Under the pieces are notes generated by a model. It was given only the letters and a program-made list of their open reading frames with translations, searched no databases and was not told the origin of the DNA. From Thermoprotei archaeon (GTDB lineage: Archaea; Thermoproteota; Thermoprotei; Thermoproteales; B15-G16): 64,000 bases of DNA. Shown here one piece after another: positions 4,571 to 62,429 of the stretch. The stretch spans positions 192,001 to 256,000 of the forward strand of contig QMRC01000003.1 of NCBI GenBank assembly GCA_003649205.1, in the 5' to 3' direction. Within the stretch, counting starts at the first letter, position 1. Each line of letters opens with the position of its first letter. Position numbers and translations under genes: made by a program.

Positions 4571-4724
4571 CTCATCTACATCCTACAGGTACCTACTACG
4601 TGGTAGACGTGTACCTGACTGCTTGAAGTGATGTAGCCTTGATCGCTGATGTAGATGTCATCAGCGAGATTGCTCTCAAGTCCTTAGGCTTTGTCTAATT
4701 TTTATAGCACCCACTTAGGTACTG

Positions 4725-5453
4725 ATGTTTGTGATGTATCGTTCCTATACAGATTGGGTTAAGGTAATTGTTGTGATAGATAATAATGTCTATCGAGAAG
4801 ACCTTTACACGTCTTGGGGTCTTTCAATCTATGTTGAGACCCCAGGTGTGAGGGTTCTATTCGATACTGATACTGATGGTTCTAGGTTGGTGTACAATGC
4901 TGAGAAGCTAGGTATTGACTTATCTACTCTCAATGCTATTGTGATTAGCCATGACCACTACGATCATAGTGGTGGTCTTGAAGCGATTGCTAACTTCTGT
5001 CGAGGTAGACCTATCTACGTACCTGCTCATAGCTACCTACTTGACTACGTCTGTAATCTAGGTCTCACTCCAGTGCCCGTACACTCCACAACACTGATTG
5101 CTGATGGAGTTTACGTTGTAGGTGAGTTATCTAGTGGAGCTTTTGGTCTCTACGAGATAGCTCTTGCCATTAAGGTAAGGAGTGGTAAGTTGGTTACTCT
5201 GTGTGGTTGTTCACACCCCGGTATTGAACGCATTGTTGAGAAGGTGCTTAAAGATATAGGTGGGATCCCCGTGGCTGTTATTGGTGGTTTTCACTCACCT
5301 ACATCGTATAGTCTTGATAAACTTGTTGAGTTAGGTGTTGAGAAAATTTACCCACTTCACTGTAGTGGATTAGGTGCTGTGAGGTACCTAAGTAGGAAGT
5401 ATCCTGAGAGGTTAGGTACTGGTGGTAGTGGTTTTGTGCTATATGTTGAGTAA
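4725..5453 (+). CDS. MBL-fold metallo-hydrolase (COG1237-like)
   Basis: WGLSIYVE, LFDT, SHDHYDHSGG, GCSHPG, GGFH and PLHCSG motifs. Confidence 0.85.
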   Translation: MFVMYRSYTDWVKVIVVIDNNVYREDLYTSWGLSIYVETPGVRVLFDTDTDGSRLVYNAEKLGIDLSTLNAIVISHDHYDHSGGLEAIANFCRGRPIYVPAHSYLLDYVCNLGLTPVPVHSTTLIADGVYVVGELSSGAFGLYEIALAIKVRSGKLVTLCGCSHPGIERIVEKVLKDIGGIPVAVIGGFHSPTSYSLDKLVELGVEKIYPLHCSGLGAVRYLSRKYPERLGTGGSGFVLYVE

Positions 5454-5484
5454 ATACACCTCTTTTTACTGTGTCTAACTGTTA

Positions 5485-5509
5485 AATACTATCTACGTTA
5501 AACAGTATT
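5485..5509. promoter_or_regulatory. Inverted-repeat operator AATACT-N13-AGTATT overlapping the chelatase promoter
   Basis: Perfect 6-bp inverted repeat overlapping the TATA-like TTAAATA (5482-5488); near copy at 16235-16259. Confidence 0.5.
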
Positions 5510-5520
5510 ACTAGTTGCAT

Positions 5521-7851
5521 ATGCCTTCGCTAGTCTTTGTCATTGGATACGGCAATCCTGCTCTCTCTGTGCTACGTGATCTTGCTCGTGAATTCGGTAG
5601 CACCGTAGCTGTGTTCTCTCCCGGTACCGAGATCCCCGAGCATGCGCTAAGAGACGTAGAGGTATTGTTCCTGTATACATATGAAGTACCTCCATTGTTG
5701 AGTAAGATCATTGATAGGTGTAGCATCGTGATTGGTGCTTCTGAAGCTACTTCGCATCTATGTAAAGGACCTAGTCACGTGGTTGAGAGAGCTATTCAGT
5801 ACTTTAGGTATGGTGGTGTTGAGAATCTGAGGTACCTCATACAGTACCTGCTCTGGATCTTAGGTAAGTACCCTAAGGAACCTCCTGATCCGAGACCTGT
5901 ACCCTGGCATGGTATTTGGCATCCTGAGCTAGGTACGTTCACAGATCTAGAGCAGTACCTTGAGCAGTACCCCTACTCAACTAGACCTCTCGTTGGGATC
6001 CTATTCTACAGGTCTCGGTGGCTCTATGGTGATGTTGCTCCTGTAGTGGAGTTGATCAAGGCTTTAGAGGATGAGGAGCTAGGTGTTGTATCTGTCTTTA
6101 CACCTGGTGTCCATAGGTTAGGTGTACTTGGTGAGCCCTCGGTAGCTGATACTGTACGTACCTTCTTTATGGTGGATGGTAGACCTGTTGTTGATTTGAT
6201 ATTATCCTTCCTCAGTTTTTACTTGGATTGTGAGGATGTATTTAGGAGTCTTGGTGTTCCTGTCCTCAAGGTAGTTAAGGAGTCGTATAGATCTGTTGAG
6301 GAGTGGCTTGCTAGCGAGCAAGGTATTTCCAGTATGGCTCAGGTATGGGAAGTTATTATGCCTGAAGTCGATGGTATTGGAGAGCCTATCTTCTTGTGTG
6401 GTGCTAGGGAGGTTGGTGGATGTAAAGTCTATGAGGTTTTCTCTCCACACGTGAAGTACATTGCTAGGAGAGTTAGGAGGTGGATTGAGCTTCGACGTAA
6501 ACCTCCTAGTGAAAGGAGAATTGCTATTGTTCTCAATAATCCTCCTTGTAAGCAAGTTGAGGCAACAATTGGTGTTGCTATGGGTCTCGACGTTCCTGAG
6601 AGTTTGGTTAGGTTTCTACATAGGTTGAAGGAGTTAGGTTACTACCTAGGTGATGGTGAGCTTCCGAAGAGTGGTAAGGAGTTAATTGAGTTGATGCTTG
6701 AGAAGAGAGCTACGAGTGAGTTTAGATGGACTTCACCTGATGACATTGTTAAGCGTGGTGGTTGTGTTGGTTCTGTAGATCTCGATACGTACATGAGGTG
6801 GTTCAGTGAATTACCTGAACGTGTTAGAGAGGTGATGATTAAGGAGTGGGGGGATCCAAGAGATATCCTAGGTGGTGAAGTTGATAGGGTTTTTGCTGGT
6901 GCTGTTTACGAGGGTAAGTTCATCGTTCCTGGAATTAGGTTCGGTAATGTGGTCATCATCCCTCAACCTAAGTTTGGGTGTGCAGGTTCAGCTTGTGATG
7001 GTAGAGTCTGTAAGATACTTCATAACCCGAGGATTCCTCCACCACATCAGTGGCTTGCTGTCTACAGATGGATTACAAGGATATTTAGAGCTGACGTAGT
7101 GATTCACTTCGGTACGCACGGCACTCTCGAGTTTAGACCGGGAAAAGGTGTTGGCTTATCACCTATGTGTTGGCCAGAGATAACGATTGATGACGTACCA
7201 TTTCTCTACATCTACATCGTGACTAATCCTATGGAGGGTGTCATAGCTAAGAGACGTGGCTACGCTATCATTATAGACCACATGTACCCACCTATGATGT
7301 TCACTGACTCAGCGCTCCAGGAACTCGATGAATTACTGGAACAGTATGAGAGAGCTCGTAGATTCAGTGATACATCACGTGCTAGTGAGCTGTATAGGGA
7401 ACTAGTGTCCAGGATCAAGAAGCTAGGTATTCCTCTCAAGATAGACTTACCTGAGGATGAAATCGTATCTGAACTCCATAAGTACTTAGAACTCATTAAG
7501 AGTACTCAGGTAGAAAAGGGACTGCATGTATTTGGTAAGACACCAACTGATAGCGACGAGCTTGCTGAAACCGTAGTCGTAATTATGAGGTATGATACAT
7601 CTAGCTGGCCATCAATACGTAGAGCAGTAGCTGAGTACCTTGGTCTTAACTATGATGAGCTCCTTAGGAAACCGAGTGAGTACTGCAAGGTACTAGGTAC
7701 CACTAATAGGAGAGTTCTCGAGCTACTAGATAAGATAGCTGTTGAGGTTTTGAAGAAGTTACTTGAGGTAGGTACTTCGTCCTCTGATCTCGATTGGTCA
7801 ACTCTTGAGGTTATACTTCATGAGGTATGTTCAAAGTACCTAAGGAGGTGA
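5521..7851 (+). CDS. cobN: CobN/Mg-chelatase H-like chelatase, N-terminal part
   Basis: VIMPEVDG, ERRIAIVL, HFGTHGTLEFRPGKGVGLS, NPMEGVIAKRRGYAIIIDH and GLHVFG motifs. Confidence 0.9.
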   Translation: MPSLVFVIGYGNPALSVLRDLAREFGSTVAVFSPGTEIPEHALRDVEVLFLYTYEVPPLLSKIIDRCSIVIGASEATSHLCKGPSHVVERAIQYFRYGGVENLRYLIQYLLWILGKYPKEPPDPRPVPWHGIWHPELGTFTDLEQYLEQYPYSTRPLVGILFYRSRWLYGDVAPVVELIKALEDEELGVVSVFTPGVHRLGVLGEPSVADTVRTFFMVDGRPVVDLILSFLSFYLDCEDVFRSLGVPVLKVVKESYRSVEEWLASEQGISSMAQVWEVIMPEVDGIGEPIFLCGAREVGGCKVYEVFSPHVKYIARRVRRWIELRRKPPSERRIAIVLNNPPCKQVEATIGVAMGLDVPESLVRFLHRLKELGYYLGDGELPKSGKELIELMLEKRATSEFRWTSPDDIVKRGGCVGSVDLDTYMRWFSELPERVREVMIKEWGDPRDILGGEVDRVFAGAVYEGKFIVPGIRFGNVVIIPQPKFGCAGSACDGRVCKILHNPRIPPPHQWLAVYRWITRIFRADVVIHFGTHGTLEFRPGKGVGLSPMCWPEITIDDVPFLYIYIVTNPMEGVIAKRRGYAIIIDHMYPPMMFTDSALQELDELLEQYERARRFSDTSRASELYRELVSRIKKLGIPLKIDLPEDEIVSELHKYLELIKSTQVEKGLHVFGKTPTDSDELAETVVVIMRYDTSSWPSIRRAVAEYLGLNYDELLRKPSEYCKVLGTTNRRVLELLDKIAVEVLKKLLEVGTSSSDLDWSTLEVILHEVCSKYLRR

Positions 7852-7852
7852 T

Positions 7853-9400
7853 GTGATGAAGACGATTGAGTTTAAGGATGATCAGACTAGAGAACGTGTA
7901 CTACGAGCATTTAAGATAGCTCTTAGACTTGCTGAGTTGATTAGAGAATGTGGTGATAACGAGCTTAGAGGTATTGAGAAAGGTCTAAGTAGCTCCTATG
8001 TAGAGCCCGGTCCAGCTGGGTCGCTTACCCGTGGTAGAATAGATATCTTACCTACTGGAAGGAACTTCTACAGCATCGACCCGAGAAAGATACCGACACC
8101 TGCTGCTTGGAGAGTTGGCGTTGAATCAGCTAATAAACTTCTGCAGAAGTTTCTTGAGCTACATGGTAGATACCCTGAGAGCGTAGGTGAGGTGTTATGG
8201 AGTATCGATGCATATAAGGCTGATGGTGAGCAGATATCGAGGATACTCTATCTACTTGGAGTTAGACCGGTGTGGGGTTCTGATGGTGTTGTCAAGGGAA
8301 TTGAGGTTATCCCACTTGAAGAACTTGGTCGACCTAGAATTGATGTTGTTGTAAGAATTAGTGGTATTGTCCGTGATAATCTACCGAATTACATAAGTTT
8401 GATAGATGAAGCTATTGAGAAAGTTATTACTCTTGATGAACCTCTAGAGATGAACTACCCGAAGAAGCATTACCTAGAGTTCATTGAGAGGTTGAGAGAA
8501 CTCAATCTACCTAACATCGATGTTGAAGAACTAGCTAGAGCACGTATTTGGTGTGCACCACCAGGTGCCTATGGTGCTGGTGTGAATTATGCAGTCTTTG
8601 CATCCGCGTGGAAGAACGAAGACGACTTAGCTAAGGTATGGATTCACTGGGGTATGTATGCGTACACGAGGAAAAGATACGGCGTACCCATACCTCACTT
8701 ACTCACCCTTCAGCTATCGAGAGTAGAGGTCGTTGTACGCAACCATGTTAGCGATGAACATGACCCAACGAATTGCTGCGGCTACTTCGCTTACCAAGGT
8801 GGTTTCCACGTCACTACAAAGGTAGTTAGTGGTAAGGAACCGCTTAACTTGGTAGTGGATACCAGAGATAGCTCAAGACCTCAGATCCGTACCCTGAGCG
8901 AAGAGTTGGTAAGGATAGTGTATGCAAAGCTCCTTAATCCTAGGTGGATTGAGGAAATGAAGAAGCACGGGTATAGGGGTGCTGCTGAACTCATGAAGAA
9001 GATAGTTCATCTCTATGGGTGGCAAGCAACTACACGTGCTGTACCTGACGAAGTGTGGAATAGAATAGCTGAGAAGTACGTACTGGATGAAGGTATGAGG
9101 AAGTGGTTCATGGAGAACAATCCATATGCTTTCGAGGAACTCACTCGTAGACTTCTCGAAGCAGTTGAACGTGGTCTTTGGAAACCAGATCTCAACGTAC
9201 TCAAGGGGATTCAATTAGCTAGAATGGAGGTAGAGTCCCTGCTGGAAGGTGAGGTCGCTGGAGTGAGTGTACAGGGAGGTGAAGTCTCGATATACACAGC
9301 TGATGATGTTCAGCCCTGGAGAGAAAGAGCTAAACCAGCTATTGAAGCTCTTGAATGGATTAAGAAGCTGAGGGGTGATGTATCTGTCTCAGGGCAGTAG
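7853..9400 (+). CDS. cobN: CobN/Mg-chelatase H-like chelatase, C-terminal part
   Basis: YVEPGPAG, LPTGRNFYSIDP, LGRPRIDVVVRISGIVRD, GAYGAGV, LLNPRWIEEMKKHGYRGA and NPYA motifs; own GGAGGTGA RBS. Confidence 0.9.
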   Translation: MMKTIEFKDDQTRERVLRAFKIALRLAELIRECGDNELRGIEKGLSSSYVEPGPAGSLTRGRIDILPTGRNFYSIDPRKIPTPAAWRVGVESANKLLQKFLELHGRYPESVGEVLWSIDAYKADGEQISRILYLLGVRPVWGSDGVVKGIEVIPLEELGRPRIDVVVRISGIVRDNLPNYISLIDEAIEKVITLDEPLEMNYPKKHYLEFIERLRELNLPNIDVEELARARIWCAPPGAYGAGVNYAVFASAWKNEDDLAKVWIHWGMYAYTRKRYGVPIPHLLTLQLSRVEVVVRNHVSDEHDPTNCCGYFAYQGGFHVTTKVVSGKEPLNLVVDTRDSSRPQIRTLSEELVRIVYAKLLNPRWIEEMKKHGYRGAAELMKKIVHLYGWQATTRAVPDEVWNRIAEKYVLDEGMRKWFMENNPYAFEELTRRLLEAVERGLWKPDLNVLKGIQLARMEVESLLEGEVAGVSVQGGEVSIYTADDVQPWRERAKPAIEALEWIKKLRGDVSVSGQ

Positions 9401-11390
9401 AAGGATCTACTTCCCCTTCTCAGCTATTGTAGGTTTAGAGAAGGCAAAACTTGCACTCCTAGCAGTTGCTGTTGATCCAACAATTGGTGGTGTACTACTG
9501 TGTGGTGATAAAGGAACTGGAAAGACTACACTTGTGAGATCACTAGCACAGATACTACCTGAAGTACCTGTTGTGAAGGGTTGTCCATTTAACTGCAATC
9601 CCCTTAACCCTTATGAGATGTGTGAAGAGCATTACCAAGCATGGCTTCGTGGTGAGAAGCTCGAGATTGAGTACAAACCAATGAGGGTTATCGACTTACC
9701 ACTTAATGTAACTGTCGATCGATTAGTTGGCACCATAGATGTTGAGCGTGCACTGAGAGAAGGTAAAGTAGTGTTTAAACCAGGTATACTAGCAGAGGCT
9801 AATAGAAACATCCTATATATTGACGAAGTTAATCTACTCGATGACTACATAGCTGACCTCCTACTAGATGCAGCAGCTACGGGTTGGAACATAGTTGAAC
9901 GTGAAGGAATTTCGTTTAGACACCCAGCACGCTTCGTACTTGTTGGTAGTATGAATCCTGAAGAGGGTGAATTAAGGCCACAGATCCTGGATAGATTTGG
10001 ACTCTTTGTCGATGTTTCTGCATCAATGAATCCTGAGGAAAGAGCTGAGATCGTTAGGAGAGTTGAGGAATTTCATAGAGATCCCTTATCCTTTATTAAG
10101 AAGTTTGAGAGTGAGGAGAGGAAAATTCGTGAAACAGTTGCTAGAGCTAGGGAACTAATTAGGGAAGTTCATATAGACAATGACCTACTGAAGCTCGTTG
10201 CTGAGACCATGGTCAAGCTACGTGTAAGAACCCATAGAGCCGACATAGTTGTAGTTAAGACAGCTAAAGCTATTGCTACACTAGATGGTAGAACACGTGT
10301 CGAACTAGAGGATGTGAAGAAAGCTATGGAGCTAGCGTTACCACATAGAATCAAGACAACTGCACCTCAAAACCCTAGACAAGCAAGTGAGCTTCTAGAG
10401 AAAGTCCTCAATGAAGTACTCGGTACTAAACAGGAATTAAGTACTGAGCACTCTCATAAGCACGCAGCAGGAAGCAGTTCTAGGGTAAATATTAGCGATA
10501 CACATGTAGCTATTGGCTCTGGCATCAGCGGTAAAGATAGCATTATAGCTAAACTAGGAGACCTAACACCTACATCACAGGGACTAACCTCATTACCCAC
10601 AACAATAACTAAGTCATCAACTATCCGTGAATTACACTTAACACCAACAACACCAACGAAGGGACGTACATCAAGAGAATGTAGTGTAACTCTAGTAGCA
10701 GTCGGTAGAGGTCGTGTCATTTACCACACAGTACCCGTTCACGACAGTGAGTACAGGGATATAGACTTAGTTGCTACACTTAGAGCTACAGTTTCAAGAT
10801 GCCTCACAACTAAGTTACCGATCCCGAGTCAAGACATTAGGGTAAGAGTTAGGAGAGTTAAGGTACCTGTACTCAATATAGTGGTGCTGGATGCTAGTGG
10901 TAGCATGTTAGCACTAAACAGAATTCAACTAGCTAGGGAGCTAGTTGAGAAGCTAGCGACTAGGAGCTACGTTACAAGATCTAGCATAGCCATTGTAGTG
11001 TTCAGAGGAAGAAGTGCATCGTGTATTCTACCACCTACGAGATGCTATGCAAAGGCTCTCGAACTCCTCAGGGAAATTGAGGTAGGGGGATCAACTCCTC
11101 TCTTCCACGGATTACTGGAGGCTTACAACGTAGCTAAGCTCTATAGACTGAGGTATCCGCTCTCTCGAGTCCACATATACTTAGTAAGTGATGGTAAGGT
11201 AAATGTACTGCTGACCGGCGACTTAGATCAAGATATTCGCACTATAGCCACATTACTTGAGAAACTCCAGTGTAAGCTCACTATATTCGAAGTTCGAGGA
11301 GAGTACTCACTCAATATTGGAATGAGTGTTATTGAGAAGTTAGCTGAGATGACTAATGGAGAGTACAGAGTAATCTACGTCAGCAAGTAA
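9375..11390 (+). CDS. Fused ChlI/ChlD-type chelatase ATPase (AAA+ domain, linker, vWA domain)
   Basis: FPFSAIVG, Walker A GDKGTGKT, Walker B LYIDEVNLL, NPEEGELRPQILDRFG, then MIDAS DASGS, GGSTPL and SDG. Confidence 0.92.
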   Translation: MMYLSQGSRRIYFPFSAIVGLEKAKLALLAVAVDPTIGGVLLCGDKGTGKTTLVRSLAQILPEVPVVKGCPFNCNPLNPYEMCEEHYQAWLRGEKLEIEYKPMRVIDLPLNVTVDRLVGTIDVERALREGKVVFKPGILAEANRNILYIDEVNLLDDYIADLLLDAAATGWNIVEREGISFRHPARFVLVGSMNPEEGELRPQILDRFGLFVDVSASMNPEERAEIVRRVEEFHRDPLSFIKKFESEERKIRETVARARELIREVHIDNDLLKLVAETMVKLRVRTHRADIVVVKTAKAIATLDGRTRVELEDVKKAMELALPHRIKTTAPQNPRQASELLEKVLNEVLGTKQELSTEHSHKHAAGSSSRVNISDTHVAIGSGISGKDSIIAKLGDLTPTSQGLTSLPTTITKSSTIRELHLTPTTPTKGRTSRECSVTLVAVGRGRVIYHTVPVHDSEYRDIDLVATLRATVSRCLTTKLPIPSQDIRVRVRRVKVPVLNIVVLDASGSMLALNRIQLARELVEKLATRSYVTRSSIAIVVFRGRSASCILPPTRCYAKALELLREIEVGGSTPLFHGLLEAYNVAKLYRLRYPLSRVHIYLVSDGKVNVLLTGDLDQDIRTIATLLEKLQCKLTIFEVRGEYSLNIGMSVIEKLAEMTNGEYRVIYVSK

Positions 11391-12327
11391 ACGAGGAATA
11401 GCTGCAGAGGCAACGAGGTGATTGATATCGAGAGCGAAATAGCGACCAATTTCACAACTAGCTTAGGAGGATAGAGTGAGAGATATAGTGGAACTACGTG
11501 TCGAGGATAATCAGATAACACAATGAAGAGAAACCTAGTCAGCACCAGTACGAGAAGCGCTTCTCTACAACTGAGGAAACTAGATCTAACAAATTCACCT
11601 ACTAGGAATACAGCAGTAACCGGACTAATAATACCTGTACACACAACAATAACGAAATGGTACGAAAAACCTAATGTGTGAGGCAATGGAGTTACTACAT
11701 TACTGAGGTAAGTAGTTACATTCAGTACCGTGAAGATTACTACTAACGCAGTAGCAACTATGTAACGAGGAACAATTCTCGAGAGAGCATGAATTGCTAA
11801 GTGCAGAGACCTACGAAGTACCTCGCGTAAACTATAGGAAGCACTAACCTCAATAGTACGACTAGGCTCCGTGTAAATTCCATGTACTTTAGATCTACCG
11901 TACACAATAGCGACTAGCAAACTTATGATCTGCGGAACAAGTGCTAGCAATAGGTACCTCAGTCCCAGAGAAACTCCGAGAGCAACCAACACAACAGGTA
12001 TGTAGTACCTATGAGGTGGGTGATCAGCGTAAAGGGTCTCCTAGGCAGTACATACGCAATCACAACATCATCCCCTACGACGCCTCCAGTCCTTAACTCA
12101 GAGAGGTATGCTTGCTCAACCTTAACATCCACTACGGCGGCAGGTATGAGAACTGCTAAGTCTGGTGGTAACCTCGCTAGTAACATAAGCGACCTGAAGG
12201 GTTTACACAGAATTCTCGAAATACCTAGCTCGTAGACCATACCCAGAACGAGAACGCCAAGGAACATCAGTGTGATGGAGATGGCTACATACCTGAGGTA
12301 AGACAGGACTAGTGATGCTAAGTCCAA
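11375..12327 (-). pseudogene. Nucleoside-recognition (Gate) domain membrane protein interrupted by a 1-nt frameshift near 12010
   Basis: Two overlapping hydrophobic ORFs join as ...LITHL(I)/RYYIPVVLVALG...; ILCKPFRSLMLLARLP and GIISPVTA resemble Gate repeats; TTG start at 12327 with GAGGT RBS. Confidence 0.6.
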
Positions 12328-12331
12328 GTCA

Positions 12332-13129
12332 CTAAACCTCAGTACTAGCTCTTGGAACAACTACCACAAAACCACAGTGCTCAAACCTAACGAAGTCAAC
12401 ACCATAGACCTCCCTAAGTACCTCAGGTCTCAATACATCACGTGGACTACCGCAAGCCACAACACGCCCCCTACTCATTAGCAGCACCTTATCACTGAAA
12501 CTAGCTGCTAAAACAGGATCGTGCATTGCCATGATAGCTGCATCTACTCTACCCGACTTCACCAACTTCCTAACAACTGAAAGCACACGTACACTATTGA
12601 CAATATCTAGGTGTGCCGTTGGTTCATCGAGGAGTAATACCTTTGCTTCCTGTACAAGCGCTCTTGCAATCAGTACCAACTGCATCTGACCACCGCTCAA
12701 CTCAGTAATAGACCTCTCGAGAAGATCCTCGATACCAAGTAACTTAGCTACCTCGTGAACTTTCTCGTAATCCCTTCGAGAAGGTAGTGAGAACATCGTG
12801 TGGTGAGGTGCTCTACCCATTAATATAAAGTCAAGTACCCTGTACGCAAATATGCTGTGATGTGTCTGAGGTACATAGCCGAAATACTTAGCGAGCTCTC
12901 TAGAACTAAGTTCATCCCATCTACGCTTACCATTAATGTACACTACACCTCTCGGTTCGAGAAGTCTAAGTATGCACTTGAGAAGCGTAGTCTTCCCAGC
13001 ACCATTTGGGCCCAGTACTGTCACTACCTCTCCACTATACACCTCAAACTCCACATCACGTAGAGCAACTAGATCACGAGAGTACGTGTAGCTAAGTCCC
13101 TCTACCCGAAGTACACACCTCATCTCCAC
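12332..13129 (-). CDS. ABC transporter ATP-binding subunit (FepC/BtuD type)
   Basis: GPNGAGKT, LSGGQ and LLLDEPTAHLD. Confidence 0.93.
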   Translation of the reverse strand: MEMRCVLRVEGLSYTYSRDLVALRDVEFEVYSGEVVTVLGPNGAGKTTLLKCILRLLEPRGVVYINGKRRWDELSSRELAKYFGYVPQTHHSIFAYRVLDFILMGRAPHHTMFSLPSRRDYEKVHEVAKLLGIEDLLERSITELSGGQMQLVLIARALVQEAKVLLLDEPTAHLDIVNSVRVLSVVRKLVKSGRVDAAIMAMHDPVLAASFSDKVLLMSRGRVVACGSPRDVLRPEVLREVYGVDFVRFEHCGFVVVVPRASTEV

Positions 13130-14136
13130 ACACCACTTGCTCTCCTAAGTAAGTATATGTAGAGTGGTGCACCCATGATCGTCGTGAGAACACCAATCGG
13201 TAGCTCCTCACTCGTGAGACACCTAGCTAAGTCATCAGCTAGTACCATGTACGTAGCACCAAACACAATACTGTATGTCACCACCACCCTATTGTCCGTA
13301 CCCAACATGAGCCTAACTATGTGGGGCACTAGTAGCCCAACCCACCCGATGATTCCGGTGTAGGCTACAGTAGCTGAAGTCATGAGAGCACAGATAGCAG
13401 TCAACAAACCTCGTTCCACAGTTGGATTCACACCAAGTGCTCTAGCCTCTTCATCTCCAAGAGATAGTACATTAAGTCTCCACCTCATAAACCAGATAAC
13501 GAGTATACAGGGTAGTGATATAGCTAACATACGCATAATCTTGTACCAAAACGCTGCTTGACCAATATCACCCATCAACCAGAAGACTATTGAGGCCAAT
13601 CTATGAGGATCTGGAGCTAAGTACTTAACAAGTGCTAGAGCTGCTGAGAAAAATGCATTAACTATGACACCAGAGAGGACAAGAGCTATTACCCCACCTC
13701 TCCCCCAACTCCAAGCTAGGACAAATGCCAGCATGAATGCGATGAGTGAGAAACAAAAAGCAACCAACTCTACCGGTACTGTTGGCGGTAAGAACGCTAT
13801 AGCTAATGCAGCACCGAACCCAGCACCTGAAGCTATGCCCAGAATGTAGGTATCAACTAAGGGGTTACGAAGCATTGATTGCAGAGCGGCACCAGAAACA
13901 GCTAGGACAGCTCCTGTAATAGCTGCTGCAATAGCTCTAGGTGCTCTATAGAGCAGTACAATCACTCGAACTGTCTCAGGTGGACTATGAATAAGGTGAG
14001 GGAATACAGCTGACAACACCACCTCAAGTACGGTCTTAGGGTCGGTCCTATAGTGACCCAGTAGGAGAGAGATCAAGATTGCTAGCGGTAGAGAAAAAGA
14101 AACAAATAGCTTTGGTACTAGCTTCCTCAAGGACAC
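13120..14136 (-). CDS. FecCD/BtuC-family ABC permease
   Basis: RNPLVDTYILGIASGA, LGDEEARALGV, GIIGWVGLLVPHIVR and ELPIGVLT. Confidence 0.93.
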   Translation of the reverse strand: MSLRKLVPKLFVSFSLPLAILISLLLGHYRTDPKTVLEVVLSAVFPHLIHSPPETVRVIVLLYRAPRAIAAAITGAVLAVSGAALQSMLRNPLVDTYILGIASGAGFGAALAIAFLPPTVPVELVAFCFSLIAFMLAFVLAWSWGRGGVIALVLSGVIVNAFFSAALALVKYLAPDPHRLASIVFWLMGDIGQAAFWYKIMRMLAISLPCILVIWFMRWRLNVLSLGDEEARALGVNPTVERGLLTAICALMTSATVAYTGIIGWVGLLVPHIVRLMLGTDNRVVVTYSIVFGATYMVLADDLARCLTSEELPIGVLTTIMGAPLYIYLLRRASGVWR

Positions 14137-14143
14137 TCACCCA

Positions 14144-16204
14144 CTAACCAGCGCTAGCAACCTCAGAATACAGTATACCATACCACTCCATGTAGTATTT
14201 ATTAGCTATCTCCATGAAGTTTATGTCACTAAACCTATCTGGGTACATCTTACACGCTAACCACAGCACGAATAAGGTTAAATCTGGGCCCCAATGCTCG
14301 TAGTAAGGCTCCTTGTACACTCTACCCTCTTTAACCGCCTTAACGACACTCCACTTAGGATCCTTGAGGAGATCCTCAGGACCGTACTTAGCCCACCACC
14401 AAATCACTATCATATCTGGATTCCACTTAACAATACGCTCAAAGTCAACAGTTACATAGCTCTTGTCTGGAAACTCCTTTGCTGCAACATTTACACCACC
14501 AGCGAGAACAATAGCATCATTCATGGTACCTCTACCACCTTGAACTCTAGTAGGCTTACTCCATAGATACAGCACACGTACTCTCTTCTCAGATGGTATG
14601 TCCTTTATCCTCTCTCGAACTAACATCAGTAGGTTATCCATATCGTTAATGATCTTCTTGACCCTATCGACCACACCATACAGCACACCTAAACACCATA
14701 GCAACCTCCTGACATCATCGTAACTATAGAGATGAACTTTCACAACTGGAATACCGAGCTTCTCAATCTGCTCAACAACACTTGGCTTATATGGCCAAAT
14801 TATGACGACGTCAGGTCTCAACATCTCAAGCACCTCTATGTTCACCTTAAACGAGGAGCCTGGACTAGGTATGTCCTTGATCTTGGGATACACCTTCAGC
14901 AGTACAGGATTCTTCTTAGCATACTTCGACACACCAACGAGTCTATCCATAACACCTAGAGCTAGGTCAGAGAGGTACGATATCAAGTCAACTACTTTCT
15001 TCACCTTTCTCGGTACCTTAACCACATTACCCAATGGATCGACAATTTCCTTCCACTCAATACTGTACGCAGCAAATGCCTGCTTAGGTATATCAATACC
15101 GTAGAAGTGCTCGAGCAGATACTCCATATCACCCCTCCAGTCGACTTCCCTATACACGTCCGGGTACAGGAGCTTCGCAATGTACTCTCTACCAATGATG
15201 TCTCTCGGACCCCAATCAAGAACTCCACCAATGCTACCCCAGCAAGGAACTACGTAGATTCTACCACTCTTGTAAGCCTTGAGAACATGCCACCTAGTAT
15301 CACTAGCAACCTTATCCAGTACCTTCTGTACGTACTTCACAGATGAGGTAATGAATACTACATCTGGATCCCACTTCACTAAAGTCTCGAAATCAACCTT
15401 AGGCCACTTCTTATTTGGGAACTCATGTAATGCCACATTGACAGCACCTATATCCTCTACAGCTCTACCCCACGAAGCATTTGCATAGAGCGAAAGAGCA
15501 CCACCCTTGAGAACACTCGAACCACTGATGAAAACAACTTTAAGTCTCTTACTCTCAGGTACCTTTGCACCAAGCTCCTTCAACTTACCGTACCTAGTCT
15601 TGATGAACTCAATAAGCTTCTTAGCCTTCTCCTCAGCACCAAGTACCTTACCCAAGATCTCAATTGCCTTTATCTCATCTTCGATACCTCTAATGAAGAG
15701 ACCAATGACAGGTATCCCCATTTGCTCAAGTTTCTTAATAATCTCATCAGCCTTACCATAGCCGAAGTCCATAATTACGACATCTGGCTTCAGAGAAGCT
15801 ATAGCCTCAACATTGACACCTCTAAATATGCTTCCAACCTTAGGTAGGTCCCTGACTTCAGGGGGTAGGTACTCATCGTAAGGTACGTAGCTACCAACAC
15901 CAACAATAGTATTAGCCTTACCGAGAGCTACAATTACCTCAGCCCAGTATGACTGAAGAACTACAACCCTCTCAGCAGGTTTAGCTAACTCAATAGTCTT
16001 CCCTCTAAAGTCCTTAATCACAATAGCTGGTTTAGTAGGTTTGGTAGGTTTAGTGGGTGGTGGAGGTGCTGTAGGTTTAGATGGTCTAGCGCTATAGTAG
16101 AGATATGTAGTGATTACAGCTGCTACAATTGCTACAATTACTACCACTAGGATTGTAACCAGAACCCACTTACTGATACCTACTTGCGACCTCATTAGAC
16201 TCAC
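14144..16204 (-). CDS. Membrane-anchored ABC substrate-binding protein with two tandem FecB/BtuF-like domains
   Basis: N-terminal TM helix, P/T/K linker, then two copies of DxxG..ERVV/KKVV..NxE.L..L(K/R)PDVVI..vdFE.lvKW.PD..W..lKA.K.GR.Y. Confidence 0.9.
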   Translation of the reverse strand: MSLMRSQVGISKWVLVTILVVVIVAIVAAVITTYLYYSARPSKPTAPPPPTKPTKPTKPAIVIKDFRGKTIELAKPAERVVVLQSYWAEVIVALGKANTIVGVGSYVPYDEYLPPEVRDLPKVGSIFRGVNVEAIASLKPDVVIMDFGYGKADEIIKKLEQMGIPVIGLFIRGIEDEIKAIEILGKVLGAEEKAKKLIEFIKTRYGKLKELGAKVPESKRLKVVFISGSSVLKGGALSLYANASWGRAVEDIGAVNVALHEFPNKKWPKVDFETLVKWDPDVVFITSSVKYVQKVLDKVASDTRWHVLKAYKSGRIYVVPCWGSIGGVLDWGPRDIIGREYIAKLLYPDVYREVDWRGDMEYLLEHFYGIDIPKQAFAAYSIEWKEIVDPLGNVVKVPRKVKKVVDLISYLSDLALGVMDRLVGVSKYAKKNPVLLKVYPKIKDIPSPGSSFKVNIEVLEMLRPDVVIIWPYKPSVVEQIEKLGIPVVKVHLYSYDDVRRLLWCLGVLYGVVDRVKKIINDMDNLLMLVRERIKDIPSEKRVRVLYLWSKPTRVQGGRGTMNDAIVLAGGVNVAAKEFPDKSYVTVDFERIVKWNPDMIVIWWWAKYGPEDLLKDPKWSVVKAVKEGRVYKEPYYEHWGPDLTLFVLWLACKMYPDRFSDINFMEIANKYYMEWYGILYSEVASAG
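16029..16055. repeat. Three-copy 9-bp tandem repeat encoding the (P)TKP linker
   Basis: ggtttagta ggtttggta ggtttagtg. Confidence 0.7.
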
Positions 16205-16234
16205 CCAAATTCAAGCTGTGTTAATACTAACTTC

Positions 16235-16259
16235 AATATTTTTTAATACTTTCAGTATG
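16235..16259. promoter_or_regulatory. Inverted-repeat operator AATATT-N13-AGTATG overlapping the ABC-operon promoter
   Basis: Same half-sites and 13-nt spacer as 5485-5509; spacer holds the minus-strand TATA-like TATTAAAA; extra TAATACT half-sites at 16222 and 16244. Confidence 0.45.
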
Positions 16260-16426
16260 AGTGCACTACGGTAATGGTAGTACCATAGCTGGGGACATGG
16301 TTCCAGAGGCACTATTAAGTACCTTACTTGAGCTTGGTACTGTGCGTCCTTGCTTAAGTCACATATAGTGAATGAGTTACTTCTTCATCTGAGAAAGACA
16401 CTAAATCACTACTGAGTACTCATGTG

Positions 16427-16846
16427 TCATGGCTTGACCTGCGGGTATAGGTCCACTAGCTTCTTAACCCTCTCATAGACGTAGTGAGCCATGTACAATG
16501 CCTCTTCTGCGTCCTCACGATCATACAGAGCTTCTGGTGGAAGTCCGGACTCTTCATCACCGTACATACTTGGTTCCTTCTCTCTACGTAATCTCCTTGA
16601 GTATCTGGCCATAGTTGGTATATCACGACGAAACCATTCAGGGAATCTATCGGCTTCTCTCCTCAGTATTGGTCCAACATCGTGCCAACGAGGAGGCTCT
16701 ACACCAACTAATCTTAGTGCTGCTTTGAGCAACAGCTCGACAGCCTCTTGACATTGCCTCACTACATAGGGGTAGTTCCCTCTTTCAAGAGCTTCTCTAG
16801 CATGGTGAATCCTCTCCTCAGCTTGTCTCACGTAGGATAGTGCCAT
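16427..16846 (-). CDS. HEPN domain protein (COG2250 type)
   Basis: CQEAVELLLKA, PPRWHDV, SMYGDE and Y...DAEEAL; downstream of an MNT gene. Confidence 0.88.
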   Translation of the reverse strand: MALSYVRQAEERIHHAREALERGNYPYVVRQCQEAVELLLKAALRLVGVEPPRWHDVGPILRREADRFPEWFRRDIPTMARYSRRLRREKEPSMYGDEESGLPPEALYDREDAEEALYMAHYVYERVKKLVDLYPQVKP

Positions 16847-16857
16847 CTCTGTATTCC

Positions 16858-17364
16858 TCAGATCTCAATCACCTCACCAAACCTATAATCACGCTTCAAC
16901 CTCCAGTACCATAACTTACCAAATCTCACTCTCTCAGCACCGAGCTCCTCCAATCTCCTCCTCAAATTCTCGAGGATATTCCTGAAGAAGTCATCCCTAT
17001 CATACAGCAACACAGCATCCTCAACAAGATCTAGGTACAGAGGTACAACCCTACTCGCTTCCTCCGGTGTCTTCAGTATTGGAGAGAACTCAATGTAGTA
17101 ACCTCGCCTCTCCAACTCCTCAAGCAAAGGCTCTAACTCCTTCTCAACTTCCATGAACAAGTCCTGTCTCCTAAACCTACCCCTAGGGAGATTCCTAACC
17201 ACAATAATCAAATCTACATCACTATCAGGTCTTGCCTCACCCCTAGCTACAGAACCAAAAAGCACAACAGATACCAAGTCATCACCAAACCTCCTCTCAA
17301 GAACCTCAACCAACTTCAAGAGTATACTCCGATACGGCTCAGGTACCTGCGCCAAATTCCTCAA
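16858..17364 (-). CDS. Minimal nucleotidyltransferase (MNT)
   Basis: LFGSVARGEARPDSDVDL (GSx10DxD). Confidence 0.9.
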   Translation of the reverse strand: MRNLAQVPEPYRSILLKLVEVLERRFGDDLVSVVLFGSVARGEARPDSDVDLIIVVRNLPRGRFRRQDLFMEVEKELEPLLEELERRGYYIEFSPILKTPEEASRVVPLYLDLVEDAVLLYDRDDFFRNILENLRRRLEELGAERVRFGKLWYWRLKRDYRFGEVIEI

Positions 17365-61389: not shown

Positions 61390-62313
61390 TTACCACCTAC
61401 CTCTCAACAAATCAACTACCGAGAATATAGCTAAGAGAAACCTAATAACCACACTGATCAAGATACCGAGCATGAGTGCTTTAAGGAGCAAACCTCTCGG
61501 AACCCTGAACCTACCTAGCTCCAGATTACTCCTCTCATAGTTTAAACCTCGAATCAATACAACAGGTATGGACTCACCAGTTTGCCCCATCAAGAGGGCA
61601 GCAGTAGCACACAACTCATCAGCAATCAAGTCAACACCACCATACTTAGATTTACCAAATCTATCGCTCTCACCGAATTTTGCTGTAACAGGAACTATAC
61701 CTGAGGCACCAATAGCTATATCTAGTGAACCAACTCTAAGAACTGATCCTTCAGTATCACTCAGAATAACTGCAACATCACAACCAGTCAGCTCCCTTAT
61801 CCTATCCCTAATCCCTCTAGCAACTCTATCTGGGTCTGATGGTGGTAAGCAAACGTACCCTGAAGGTACATTTGATGTGTCTATTCCAGCATCTGTAGCT
61901 ACCCTATACCCAACGTCAACGATCATGAGGTACCTATCACTCTCGATAACTTTTAATGCTCTATCTCTATCACGGGATATGTAGTTCAAAATCGTTGAAT
62001 GTTTAAGTAGCATATGTGCAGGGAATGCACCTAAGATACGTTTAGAGTTCCTAAGTATTAGCTCTACCTCCCATGCTGGTTTGCCAAGGATCCTAGCTAT
62101 GATCCTAGCCTTAGTACTCGGTCTAACATCACTAATCTTCACTAGTAAACCCATAGCCTTAGAAACTACCTTTGATGTCACTACAATGACATCACCATCC
62201 CTAATACCAATACCGAGTCTATTAGCTGACTCCACAATGGTTCTAGCTAGATCAGTACCTGGAGTGATCTCGGGTAGAGGTATTCCAAATACCTCTAGTT
62301 TCCTAACGACCAT
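61390..62313 (-). CDS. cofE: Coenzyme F420-0:L-glutamate ligase (CofE) family protein with a C-terminal TM
   Basis: PEITPG.DL, DGDVIVVTSKVVSKA, AGIDTSN, DPD..A..IR, SDT, ADEL and GE.IPVVLIRG. Confidence 0.8.
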   Translation of the reverse strand: MVVRKLEVFGIPLPEITPGTDLARTIVESANRLGIGIRDGDVIVVTSKVVSKAMGLLVKISDVRPSTKARIIARILGKPAWEVELILRNSKRILGAFPAHMLLKHSTILNYISRDRDRALKVIESDRYLMIVDVGYRVATDAGIDTSNVPSGYVCLPPSDPDRVARGIRDRIRELTGCDVAVILSDTEGSVLRVGSLDIAIGASGIVPVTAKFGESDRFGKSKYGGVDLIADELCATAALLMGQTGESIPVVLIRGLNYERSNLELGRFRVPRGLLLKALMLGILISVVIRFLLAIFSVVDLLRGRW

Positions 62314-62429
62314 AGAAACCCCCGGACCTCTCAGTAGTGAATTTATACACACCTAATACGTACCGACTTAGGAAAAGTGTTATAAGTAACATGTGATACA
62401 CCTCACAAAAACTACTTAAGGTGATTCCT

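Follow-up and report, generated by a model that had tools for sequence, protein, structure and literature searches.

A conserved archaeal uptake-plus-chelatase module with a split, four-cysteine CobN-type subunit in a cobamide-scavenging archaeon

Why should an archaeon that makes no tetrapyrrole keep a chelatase of the CobN/ChlH type, and keep it beside an importer? The question is raised by positions 4725–16204 of a 64,000-nucleotide stretch of DNA from a Thermoprotei archaeon (assembly GCA_003649205.1, contig QMRC01000003.1, positions 192,001–256,000), here called the window, which is G000:C3:35429-99428 in our numbering of its genome (G000, a 2.07-Mb assembly of 31 contigs, 94% complete). 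An earlier note, made from the letters of this DNA alone, had proposed that the genes form an undescribed system that imports a metal-bearing compound and inserts, removes or exchanges the metal. Judged by its gene content, its split large subunit, its synteny, the absence of a biosynthetic pathway and its active-site signature, the locus is a conserved archaeal uptake-plus-chelatase module, and its large subunit belongs, by sequence, to a distinct "four-Cys" subfamily. By analogy with HmuS, we tentatively favor, at rather less than even confidence, a predicted metal-harvesting dechelatase, in which cofactor, substrate, metal and direction of transfer are all inferred.

On the forward strand, the gene of an MBL hydrolase is followed by a CobN/ChlH-type subunit, encoded as halves of 778 and 515 amino acids (aa), and by a fused ChlI-ChlD motor. 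The reverse strand encodes a tandem binding protein, a FecCD permease, an ATPase and a frameshifted Gate-domain membrane protein. The open reading frames (ORFs) were found where the earlier note had placed them, and Pfam and NCBIfam profile scans identified their families. The convergent arrangement it described was also seen, the facing ORFs sharing the 16 bp from 11375 to 11390. The features of the locus are:

4725..5453, + strand: MBL-fold metallo-hydrolase of 242 aa with an HDHYDH motif, first gene of the + operon (Pfam Lactamase_B, 7.9e-9)
5515..7851, + strand: N-terminal half of a CobN/ChlH/HmuS-type large subunit, 778 aa (Pfam CobN-Mg_chel, 3e-174, profile positions 2-662 of 1090)
7853..9400, + strand: C-terminal half of the CobN/ChlH/HmuS-type large subunit, 515 aa (Pfam CobN-Mg_chel, 3.4e-171, profile positions 676-1087 of 1090)
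9375..11390, + strand: fused ChlI-ChlD motor of 671 aa, consisting of an AAA+ module, a linker and a vWA domain (Pfam AAA_lid_2, Mg_chelatase and VWA_2)
11375..12360, - strand: Gate-domain (SpmA/B-YjiG-like) polytopic membrane protein, broken (ORFs 11959-12360 and 11375-11992)
12332..13129, - strand: ABC ATPase of a type-II importer, 265 aa (Pfam ABC_tran, 1.5e-31)
13120..14136, - strand: FecCD/BtuC-type permease of 338 aa with about nine hydrophobic segments (Pfam FecCD, 1.9e-80)
14144..16204, - strand: membrane-anchored tandem substrate-binding protein, 686 aa (Pfam Peripla_BP_2, 1.2e-61, two stretches)

The note's statement that the window holds no cob, cbi, bch or hem genes was borne out by 51 further ORFs of at least 100 aa and 15 in the first scan, and its view that the unit takes no part in making corrins de novo held when the whole genome was searched. 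No ALA dehydratase (ALAD) was found in the whole of G000, nor were CbiB, a CbiA/CbiP-type GATase_3 or CbiZ, and TP_methylase gave a single weak match of 73 bits, compared with the 4–8 matches seen in producers. No route for making hydrogenobyrinic acid a,c-diamide and for maturing the product, as would accompany a CobN, was thus found in G000. The note had also named the outcome that would count against its own reading, an aerobic-type pathway elsewhere in the genome together with a canonical CobN; G000 holds no aerobic pathway, and the protein lacks the cobalt-binding Asp of canonical CobN. What the genome does encode is CobS, next to CobT-like, CobY-like/Asn-synthase fusion and PgpA-like genes, and it gives eight B12-binding matches, comprising three corrinoid proteins and five B12-binding radical-SAM proteins. 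The organism is a cobamide-dependent scavenger, and the chelatase is therefore not a biosynthetic cobaltochelatase; the same follows from the lack of tetrapyrrole synthesis and of enzymes that mature early corrinoids. Within the phylum, 9 of 251 genomes carry a member of the chelatase clade (at least 55% identity). ALAD, looked for in eight carriers, is absent from G000, G075, G184, G247 and G252 (91–98% complete) and present in G005, G011 and G059, and CobS and B12-binding proteins occur in all six carriers tested for them (G000, G059, G075, G184, G247, and G252).

Two observations concern the corrinoid genes themselves. The CobY-like NTP transferase/asparagine-synthase fusion, of 528 aa, lies at L104:6559-8142 (G000:C12:9558-11141) and may replace the missing cobinamide-salvage step. 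The three corrinoid proteins (L105, L107, and L110, on contigs C12, C2, and C1) are encoded beside methyltransferases of the MttB, MtrH and URO-D (MtaA-like) types, which suggests a methyl-transfer metabolism dependent on scavenged cobamide in a genome of the order Thermoproteales.

That chelatase and importer act as one functional unit, as the note proposed, is supported by a neighborhood conserved across distant archaea and not by an operator. We compared 80 related loci, the best 80 of 415 matches, using our own ORF calls and BLAST labels; kin among them are not independent. FecCD permeases were found in 45 loci, binding proteins in 47, either of the two in 51 and ChlID in 51, so that the linkage of chelatase and transporter, whose absence would have told against the note's proposal, is present in 51 of the 80, spread over at least eight lineages. 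These include Thermococci, Archaeoglobi, Hadesarchaea, Heimdallarchaeum, Methanomethylicia, Methanodesulfokora, Bathyarchaeia, Desulfurococcales/Ignisphaera and Aciduliprofundum. The usual order, on one strand, is binding protein, permease, ATPase, (Gate-like protein), CobN and ChlID. When only loci with at least 4 kb of sequence upstream and at least 6 kb downstream were counted (n = 21), 14 had the importer and 18 had ChlID. Three of the seven well-flanked loci without the importer carry a CbiQ/double-ATPase transporter and a beta-propeller protein instead, and three others hold a gene for the N-half only, beside BtpA, DUF1646 and SecY. Replacement of the FecCD type by the CbiQ/double-ATPase transporter was seen in five or six related loci altogether. 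Gate-like proteins were recognized in 11 loci by BLAST, in addition to a 17-locus cluster.

The signature that sets the large subunit apart lies in and around its active site. Its N-half carries the HFGTHG motif (residues 531–536) with H535, followed by E574, and four invariant cysteines, C345, C489, C494 and C499, in the spacing C-x143-C-x4-C-x4-C. H535 and E574 match H554 and E593 of CobN as well as H538 and E577 of HmuS, with the same spacing of 39 residues. In the C-half, the active-site loop reads SDEHDPTNCCGYFAYQGG, in which C308 and C309 replace the Ser-Asp of CobN. Where aligned CobN loops read EHD...SDDY(F/Y) and ChlH reads SHYFD, 48 of 51 clade members have EHD-x3-CCC-YF; the remainder have CCG, as does the window protein, or CCS. 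For the CobN of Brucella, the available part of a preprint describes two Co2+ in the putative active site and critical residues that include H554, E593 and D1100 (preprint). In residue-level alignment to the CobN chains, Brucella D1100 falls on C309 of the window protein, which thus retains the His and the Glu and has Cys at the position of the Asp.

The two features go together in a wider sample. Among 113 full-length representatives, drawn from a search of 1.8 billion proteins and classed by their active-site motifs, all four cysteines are present in 38, none of which has the xDD motif (0/38), and 75 have none of the four, with xDD in 60 of these. The four cysteines are found in all 39 fused clade members and in none of five HmuS-like archaeal paralogues. 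The four cysteines, together with Cys in place of the cobalt-binding Asp, make a simple sequence rule by which these proteins can be told from true CobN. Next to the catalytic His, the four cysteines probably form the site of an iron-sulfur (Fe-S) cluster or a Cys4 site for a metal. An oxygen-sensitive Fe-S cluster has reportedly been described in a study of R. capsulatus BchH.

A second archaeal clade of CobN-like proteins, of about 1185 aa, adjoins the four-Cys clade in G005, G011 and six loci. It has the HmuS-type motif DLDHYYEF(F/L)GG and none of the four cysteines, and it appears to share one ChlI-ChlD gene with the four-Cys clade. Such a pair of paralogues on one motor would suit a swap in which one metal is removed and another inserted. 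Members of this HmuS-like clade are found at:

L016:13980-17540, HmuS-like clade member
L021:14808-18359, HmuS-like clade member
L048:3445-6996, HmuS-like clade member
L068:6936-10508, HmuS-like clade member
L080:7640-11164, HmuS-like clade member

The division of the large subunit over two genes is real. The N-half ends at a TGA stop codon (7849–7851) within GGAGGTGA, and the C-half starts immediately after it (GTG 7853 or ATG 7856). In a related strain, one contig reads through the junction without gaps, and relatives, too, have split forms. Archaea commonly have homologues of about 800 aa, and unsplit forms of about 1250 aa, 47–50% identical, occur in Thermococcus, Pyrococcus yayanosii and Palaeococcus. 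In G005 (L021, 7010-10923) and in L074 the gene order is permuted, with the C-half gene upstream of the N-half gene, so the halves behave as separate genes. A quick tree of 59 C-domains, in which some "split" labels are uncertain because of fragments at contig ends or broken genes (e.g., L098 and L091), interleaves split and fused forms and forces at least six changes across well-supported branches; the C-half of the window groups with the split forms of other Thermoproteales and of Ignisphaera. Genes for the N-half alone, of about 795 aa and with the four cysteines, were seen at L015, L017, L019, L020, L079, L081, L086, L087, and L090, adjoining genes for BtpA, DUF1646, SecY and ribosomal proteins, with no C-half, ChlID or importer within the available flanks.

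The ChlI-ChlD protein, the motor partner, has a Walker A motif (GDKGTGKT, residues 44–51), a Walker B motif (ILYIDE) and a MIDAS motif (DASGS, residues 506–510), and scores 596.5 bits with TIGR02442 (cut-off 779.45) and 401.7 bits with TIGR02030 over residues 13–349. Its gene overlaps that of the C-half, and the AAA+ protein with a vWA/MIDAS adaptor that defines a class I holoenzyme is present.

Turning to the importer, the 686-aa binding protein has a hydrophobic anchor at its N-terminus, a Pro/Thr/Lys linker and a pair of Peripla_BP_2 domains with 31% identity between them; binding proteins of at least 600 aa occur in 19 of the 80 related loci. Domain 2 finds its best match in the Protein Data Bank (PDB) in a nickel-binding protein (4INO/4LS3, 115.7 bits), and domain 1 reaches only about 45 bits with BtuF. 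All NCBIfam matches of the transporter stay below the equivalog cut-offs (BtuC PRK09535, 210.5 against 461; corrinoid ATPase, 202.2 against 537; BtuF, 85.7 against 234). The Gate protein named by the earlier note is encoded, in the form of two broken ORFs, neither of which matches Pfam. These ORFs, with three and five hydrophobic segments, are colinear in two frames with homologues of about 310 aa, and Gate homologues at other loci do match Pfam Gate (7.9e-8, and 2.2e-8 to 1.2e-4). The gene is broken in G000 by a deletion of one base at 12011/12012; the same-genus relative G001 has an intact frame of 328 aa, and the extra base is also present in a related strain (run X2), while run X1, perhaps the source run, yields a contig that matches the window exactly.

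A second FecCD-type importer, with a single-domain receptor, was observed at L106:5086-8451 (G000:C5:7085-10450). Its receptor is the most BtuF-like of G000 (88.9 bits to 5YSC), so this system is the likelier cobamide importer of the organism.

How far do known systems account for the module? Both halves score below every NCBIfam cut-off for CobN or BchH; for CobN the rough sums over the halves can be set against the thresholds (NF004646, 638.9 + 549.4 against 1468; TIGR02257, 373.6 + 428.1 against 822.05). The N-half is slightly closest to ChlH among PDB chains (207 bits, with CobN at 199/184 and HmuS at 146), and the C-half to CobN (322/318 bits, with ChlH at 275 and HmuS at 212). A structural model of a fused clade member (pLDDT 85.3, pTM 0.88; 52–66 in the Cys loop) gave TM scores of 0.80 to CobN (7C6O), 0.79 to HmuS and 0.76 to ChlH. 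The module is thus built like CobN-CobST/CobN-ChlID (EC 6.6.1.2; 7C6O, 9UK9), with which it shares the full-length domain and six-domain fold, the His of HFGTHG and the Glu 39 residues later, the EHD motif and an AAA+/vWA motor partner. It differs from these in the two genes for the subunit, in the four cysteines that canonical CobN lacks, in Cys-Cys(-Cys) where CobN has Ser-Asp-Asp including Asp 1100, in the absence of a corrin pathway and in its partnership with an importer, and so departs from CobN in its metal ligands and in its pathway. With ChlH/BchH (4ZHJ, 6YSG) it shares the fold, the slightly best score of the N-half and a ChlI-like motor. In contrast, the ChlH loop vSHYFDsdp, whose His and Asp we take to be H1174 and D1177, is cCGYFAyqg in the window protein, and no chlorophyll genes are present.

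The closest parallel in logic is HmuS (PDB 9D26). According to the available text of the report on this protein, HmuS is a CobN homologue in the hmu uptake operon of Bacteroidota that removes iron from haem, with turnover shown with NADH, and has the motif LSLDHxxEFMGG (His-1209, Glu-1212), an essential His-538, an N-terminal membrane anchor, a Met-rich insertion and a haem site of Met-79 and His-254 (PMC12583661). The module resembles it as a CobN-superfamily protein that is encoded with an uptake system in organisms that make no tetrapyrrole, and in fold and the His of HFG(T/A)HG; this last motif runs through the superfamily, and the shared His does therefore not discriminate HmuS. Otherwise the two differ: the loop is NCCGYFAYQGG in place of LSLDHxxEFMGG; hydropathy shows no hydrophobic segment in the N-half, whereas HmuS is membrane-anchored; among the three families HmuS gives the lowest scores (146 and 212 bits); and HmuS works with a TonB receptor and NADH, where the module has an ABC importer and a linked I/D motor. 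The likeness to HmuS is one of logic and does not extend to its motif. The importer, for its part, resembles BtuCDF for vitamin B12 in its Peripla_BP_2 receptor, FecCD permease and ATPase and in its best NCBIfam names (BtuC, corrinoid ATPase), and the Helicobacter nickel-binding receptor (4INO/4LS3) as the best solved relative of receptor domain 2. It differs from BtuCDF in the anchored two-domain receptor, with weak similarity to BtuF and scores below the equivalog cut-offs, and in its pairing with a chelatase and often with a Gate-domain protein.

From these comparisons we propose the following predicted course of events. The type-II ABC importer, with its anchored tandem receptor, FecCD permease and ATPase, would bring in a metal-bearing compound, on which the class-I chelatase-type machine would then act. 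The CobN-type subunit would consist of two polypeptides whose interface forms the active site, and would be driven by the fused ChlI-ChlD AAA+/vWA motor. ATP-driven distortion of the imported metal-macrocycle (tetrapyrrole- or corrinoid-like), or of another tight metal chelate, might release a thiophilic metal, Ni or Co and less likely Fe, onto a site of His, Glu and Cys, and the Gate-type membrane protein may move the freed metal or the stripped ligand. The link to metal comes from the receptor, whose domain 2 has a nickel-binding protein as its nearest solved relative, from the second receptor of G000 being the more BtuF-like of the two, and from the CbiQ/double-ATPase transporter that stands in for the importer at five or six related loci. 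The literature, as far as its text was available, describes responses of methanogen proteins that may belong to the clade: in Methanothermobacter, a protein annotated CobN1 is up under nickel limitation (PMC12350162), as is a transporter two locus tags from chelatase genes (PMC12350162, PMC3087415), and in M. barkeri two proteins called "BtuS" react to which source of iron and sulfur is supplied (PMC10846266).

Several points weigh against metal harvest. CobN is a closer relative of the protein than HmuS is (322 as opposed to 212 bits for the C-half; Foldseek identities of 32% and 24%). The DH-x2-E motif of HmuS is missing from it and present in the clade found next door in some relatives; dechelation could be the work of that clade, and the opposite step that of the four-Cys clade. 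An I/D motor is the hallmark of insertion enzymes, and we know of no enzyme that takes Co out of a corrin or Ni out of F430. Each of the six carriers tested uses cobamides and has CobS, and permease and ATPase score best with corrinoid-transporter models, below the cut-offs; these two facts together leave room for a corrinoid role. The similarity to the nickel-binding protein is a single moderate sequence match, and the direction of metal transfer is a guess. Within the locus, the Gate gene is disrupted in the window's own genome and the MBL gene fits no assigned role, and the synteny was drawn from the best 80 of 415 matches, with dependent kin among them. Weighing all of this, we rank metal harvest first and the insertion of cobalt into scavenged metal-free corrinoids second.

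The latter reading, in which the importer brings a metal-free corrinoid from neighbors and the CobN-type enzyme inserts Co2+, seems to us unlikely. In its favor, by sequence and fold the subunit is closest to CobN and keeps the EHD motif that ChlH does not have, the six tested carriers all have CobS and B12-binding proteins, the best NCBIfam names of the transporter are those of corrinoid systems (below cut-off), and a salvage role for haloarchaeal CobN/ChlID has been speculated upon by Pfeiffer and Dyall-Smith, in the available part of their text (PMC8305020). What speaks against it is that CbiA/CbiP, CbiB and CbiZ were not found in G000 (G247 and G252 give only weak GATase_3 matches), so the product of canonical CobN, cobyrinic acid a,c-diamide, could not be matured and only a complete metal-free cobamide or cobinamide would serve. 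Such complete metal-free compounds are rare in nature. In addition, Cys replaces the cobalt-binding Asp, G000 has another, more BtuF-like importer, and Rfam detected no riboswitch in the window or in six related loci. To the annotated function, an ordinary biosynthetic CobN-ChlID of the cobalamin pathway, we give next to no credence. RefSeq does call homologues cobaltochelatase CobN, and among the plasmid matches, all of them canonical CobN, the fused ChlID of Ralstonia adjoins CobN inside a cbi cluster, so the pairing can be biosynthetic; yet ALAD, corrin methyltransferases, CbiA/P and CbiB were not found in a genome that is 94% complete, every NCBIfam equivalog cut-off is missed and the Asp ligand is replaced. 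For G000 this reading is already contradicted, unless the missing 6% holds the whole pathway.

Another reading has the enzyme work on a tetrapyrrole of the cell's own, as a high-affinity, ATP-driven Ni/Co chelatase supplied with metal by the importer and backing up CbiX/CfbA under scarcity. In its favor, the clade is also present in the ALAD-bearing G005, G011 and G059. CbiQ-type transporters at some loci, the receptor's likeness to a nickel-binding protein, and the induction of an annotated methanogen CobN1 under nickel limitation (PMC12350162, available text) agree with this, and Cys ligands would be expected to raise metal affinity. For G000 and four other carriers without ALAD it is nonetheless impossible, since these have no endogenous tetrapyrrole, and a family with a single function ought to serve producers and non-producers alike; we think it improbable. 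To a role without metal transfer, in which the large subunit, aided by an Fe-S cluster and the motor, acts as a chaperone or activase and reduces, unloads or passes on an imported cofactor received from the transporter, we likewise attach a low probability. Redox chemistry is suggested by the four-Cys signature, and the carriers are heavy users of cobamides. Against this, the metal site strictly retains its His and Glu and has a conserved run of Cys at its third ligand position, which points to metal chemistry, and such handling is without precedent in the family. Finally, the two operons might be neighbors by chance and functionally unrelated, given that they share no operator, are convergent rather than co-directional in the window, and that 7 of the 21 well-flanked loci lack the importer. 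Since importer genes lie next to the chelatase in 51 of 80 loci from distant lineages, in most cases running in the same direction and immediately beside CobN, we consider a coincidence very improbable indeed.

The near-identical operator that the earlier note placed on both promoters was not confirmed: the best shared 9-mer, TGACTTAAG, has an alignment score of 18, which is the level of chance, as shuffles of the two upstream regions gave a mean score of 18.6 and reached 18 in 331 of 500 cases. Co-regulation through a common operator is unsupported by this test. By k-mer comparison and local alignment, the two upstream regions have only TGACTTAAG and the 8-mer ACTCATTC in common, the latter not retained in G001 (locus L024). 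As the whole spacer of 287 nt is 89% conserved with respect to G001, conservation singles out no site. For riboswitches, an Rfam scan at gathering thresholds of the window and six related loci (143 kb) gave one tRNA only. Upstream of the + operon we noted a perfect 7-bp inverted repeat, GCTGATG-N7-CATCAGC (window 4645–4665), about 35 bp upstream of the TATA-like TTTTTATAG (approximately 4699–4707). It is retained in G001 save for one base of its spacer, and no counterpart was seen before the importer operon.

Some features of the surroundings lie outside the module. The MBL gene is specific to the lineage and does not belong to the conserved module: an MBL label occurs in 2 of the 80 related loci, adjacent to CobN only in G001, the match in L097 being a fragment of 118 aa, and MBL paralogues are encoded at three other places in G000. 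Window positions 16427–17364 (- strand), which lie immediately upstream of the importer operon, encode a HEPN protein (139 aa) and a nucleotidyltransferase (168 aa), a pair that is likely a toxin-antitoxin module. A gene for an F420-0:gamma-glutamyl ligase (CofE-type) at window 61393–62352 (- strand) points to F420 use in this archaeon. Contig C3 (291,428 bp) is identical to its own reverse complement, an assembly artifact that doubles 145.7 kb; this perfect palindrome produced a false second copy of the chelatase locus in genome searches, which we rejected.

Is the system new? The description of the system as undescribed stands for its function, for which we found nothing in print; it does not stand for the gene set, which is widespread, with members named cobaltochelatase CobN by RefSeq, or for the puzzle itself, which has been published. 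In the available parts of two papers, the purpose of archaeal CobN homologues is said to be unclear, and salvage or (de)metallation are given as speculative (PMC12583661, PMC8305020). No paper was found that assigns a function to the clade or describes the four-Cys signature, in a survey that did not include a dedicated motif search and whose scope left out subscription journals and bioRxiv supplements. New here are the auxotrophy argument from the whole genome, the breadth of the linkage to the importer, the signature of four Cys without the Asp and the HmuS-like sister clade.

Thousands of archaeal and bacterial genes are annotated as cobaltochelatase CobN, and the window offers a clean natural test case, in which an organism without tetrapyrrole synthesis has kept the enzyme together with an importer. 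The four-Cys rule can serve to correct annotation and predictions of B12 producers from metagenomes, and directs experiments to a small set of ligands and metals; the module gives archaeal CobN homologues a testable role. If harvest or exchange of Ni or Co is indeed what it does, this would add a new way of acquiring trace metals where habitats are sulfidic and poor in metals, with a bearing on the physiology of methanogens and hydrogenases. A more far-reaching possibility, which we regard as quite doubtful, is that the four-Cys enzymes are Fe-S-dependent, ATP-driven dechelatases of a metal-piracy system, in which Ni or Co would be stripped at the His/Glu/Cys site from imported corrinoids, F430 or its breakdown products, or Ni/Co-porphyrinoids made by others, and the ligand expelled or recycled through the Gate protein. 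Were this true, tetrapyrroles would serve as metallophores for anaerobic archaea, and, where the HmuS-like paralogue shares the motor, the two would perform a true metal swap.

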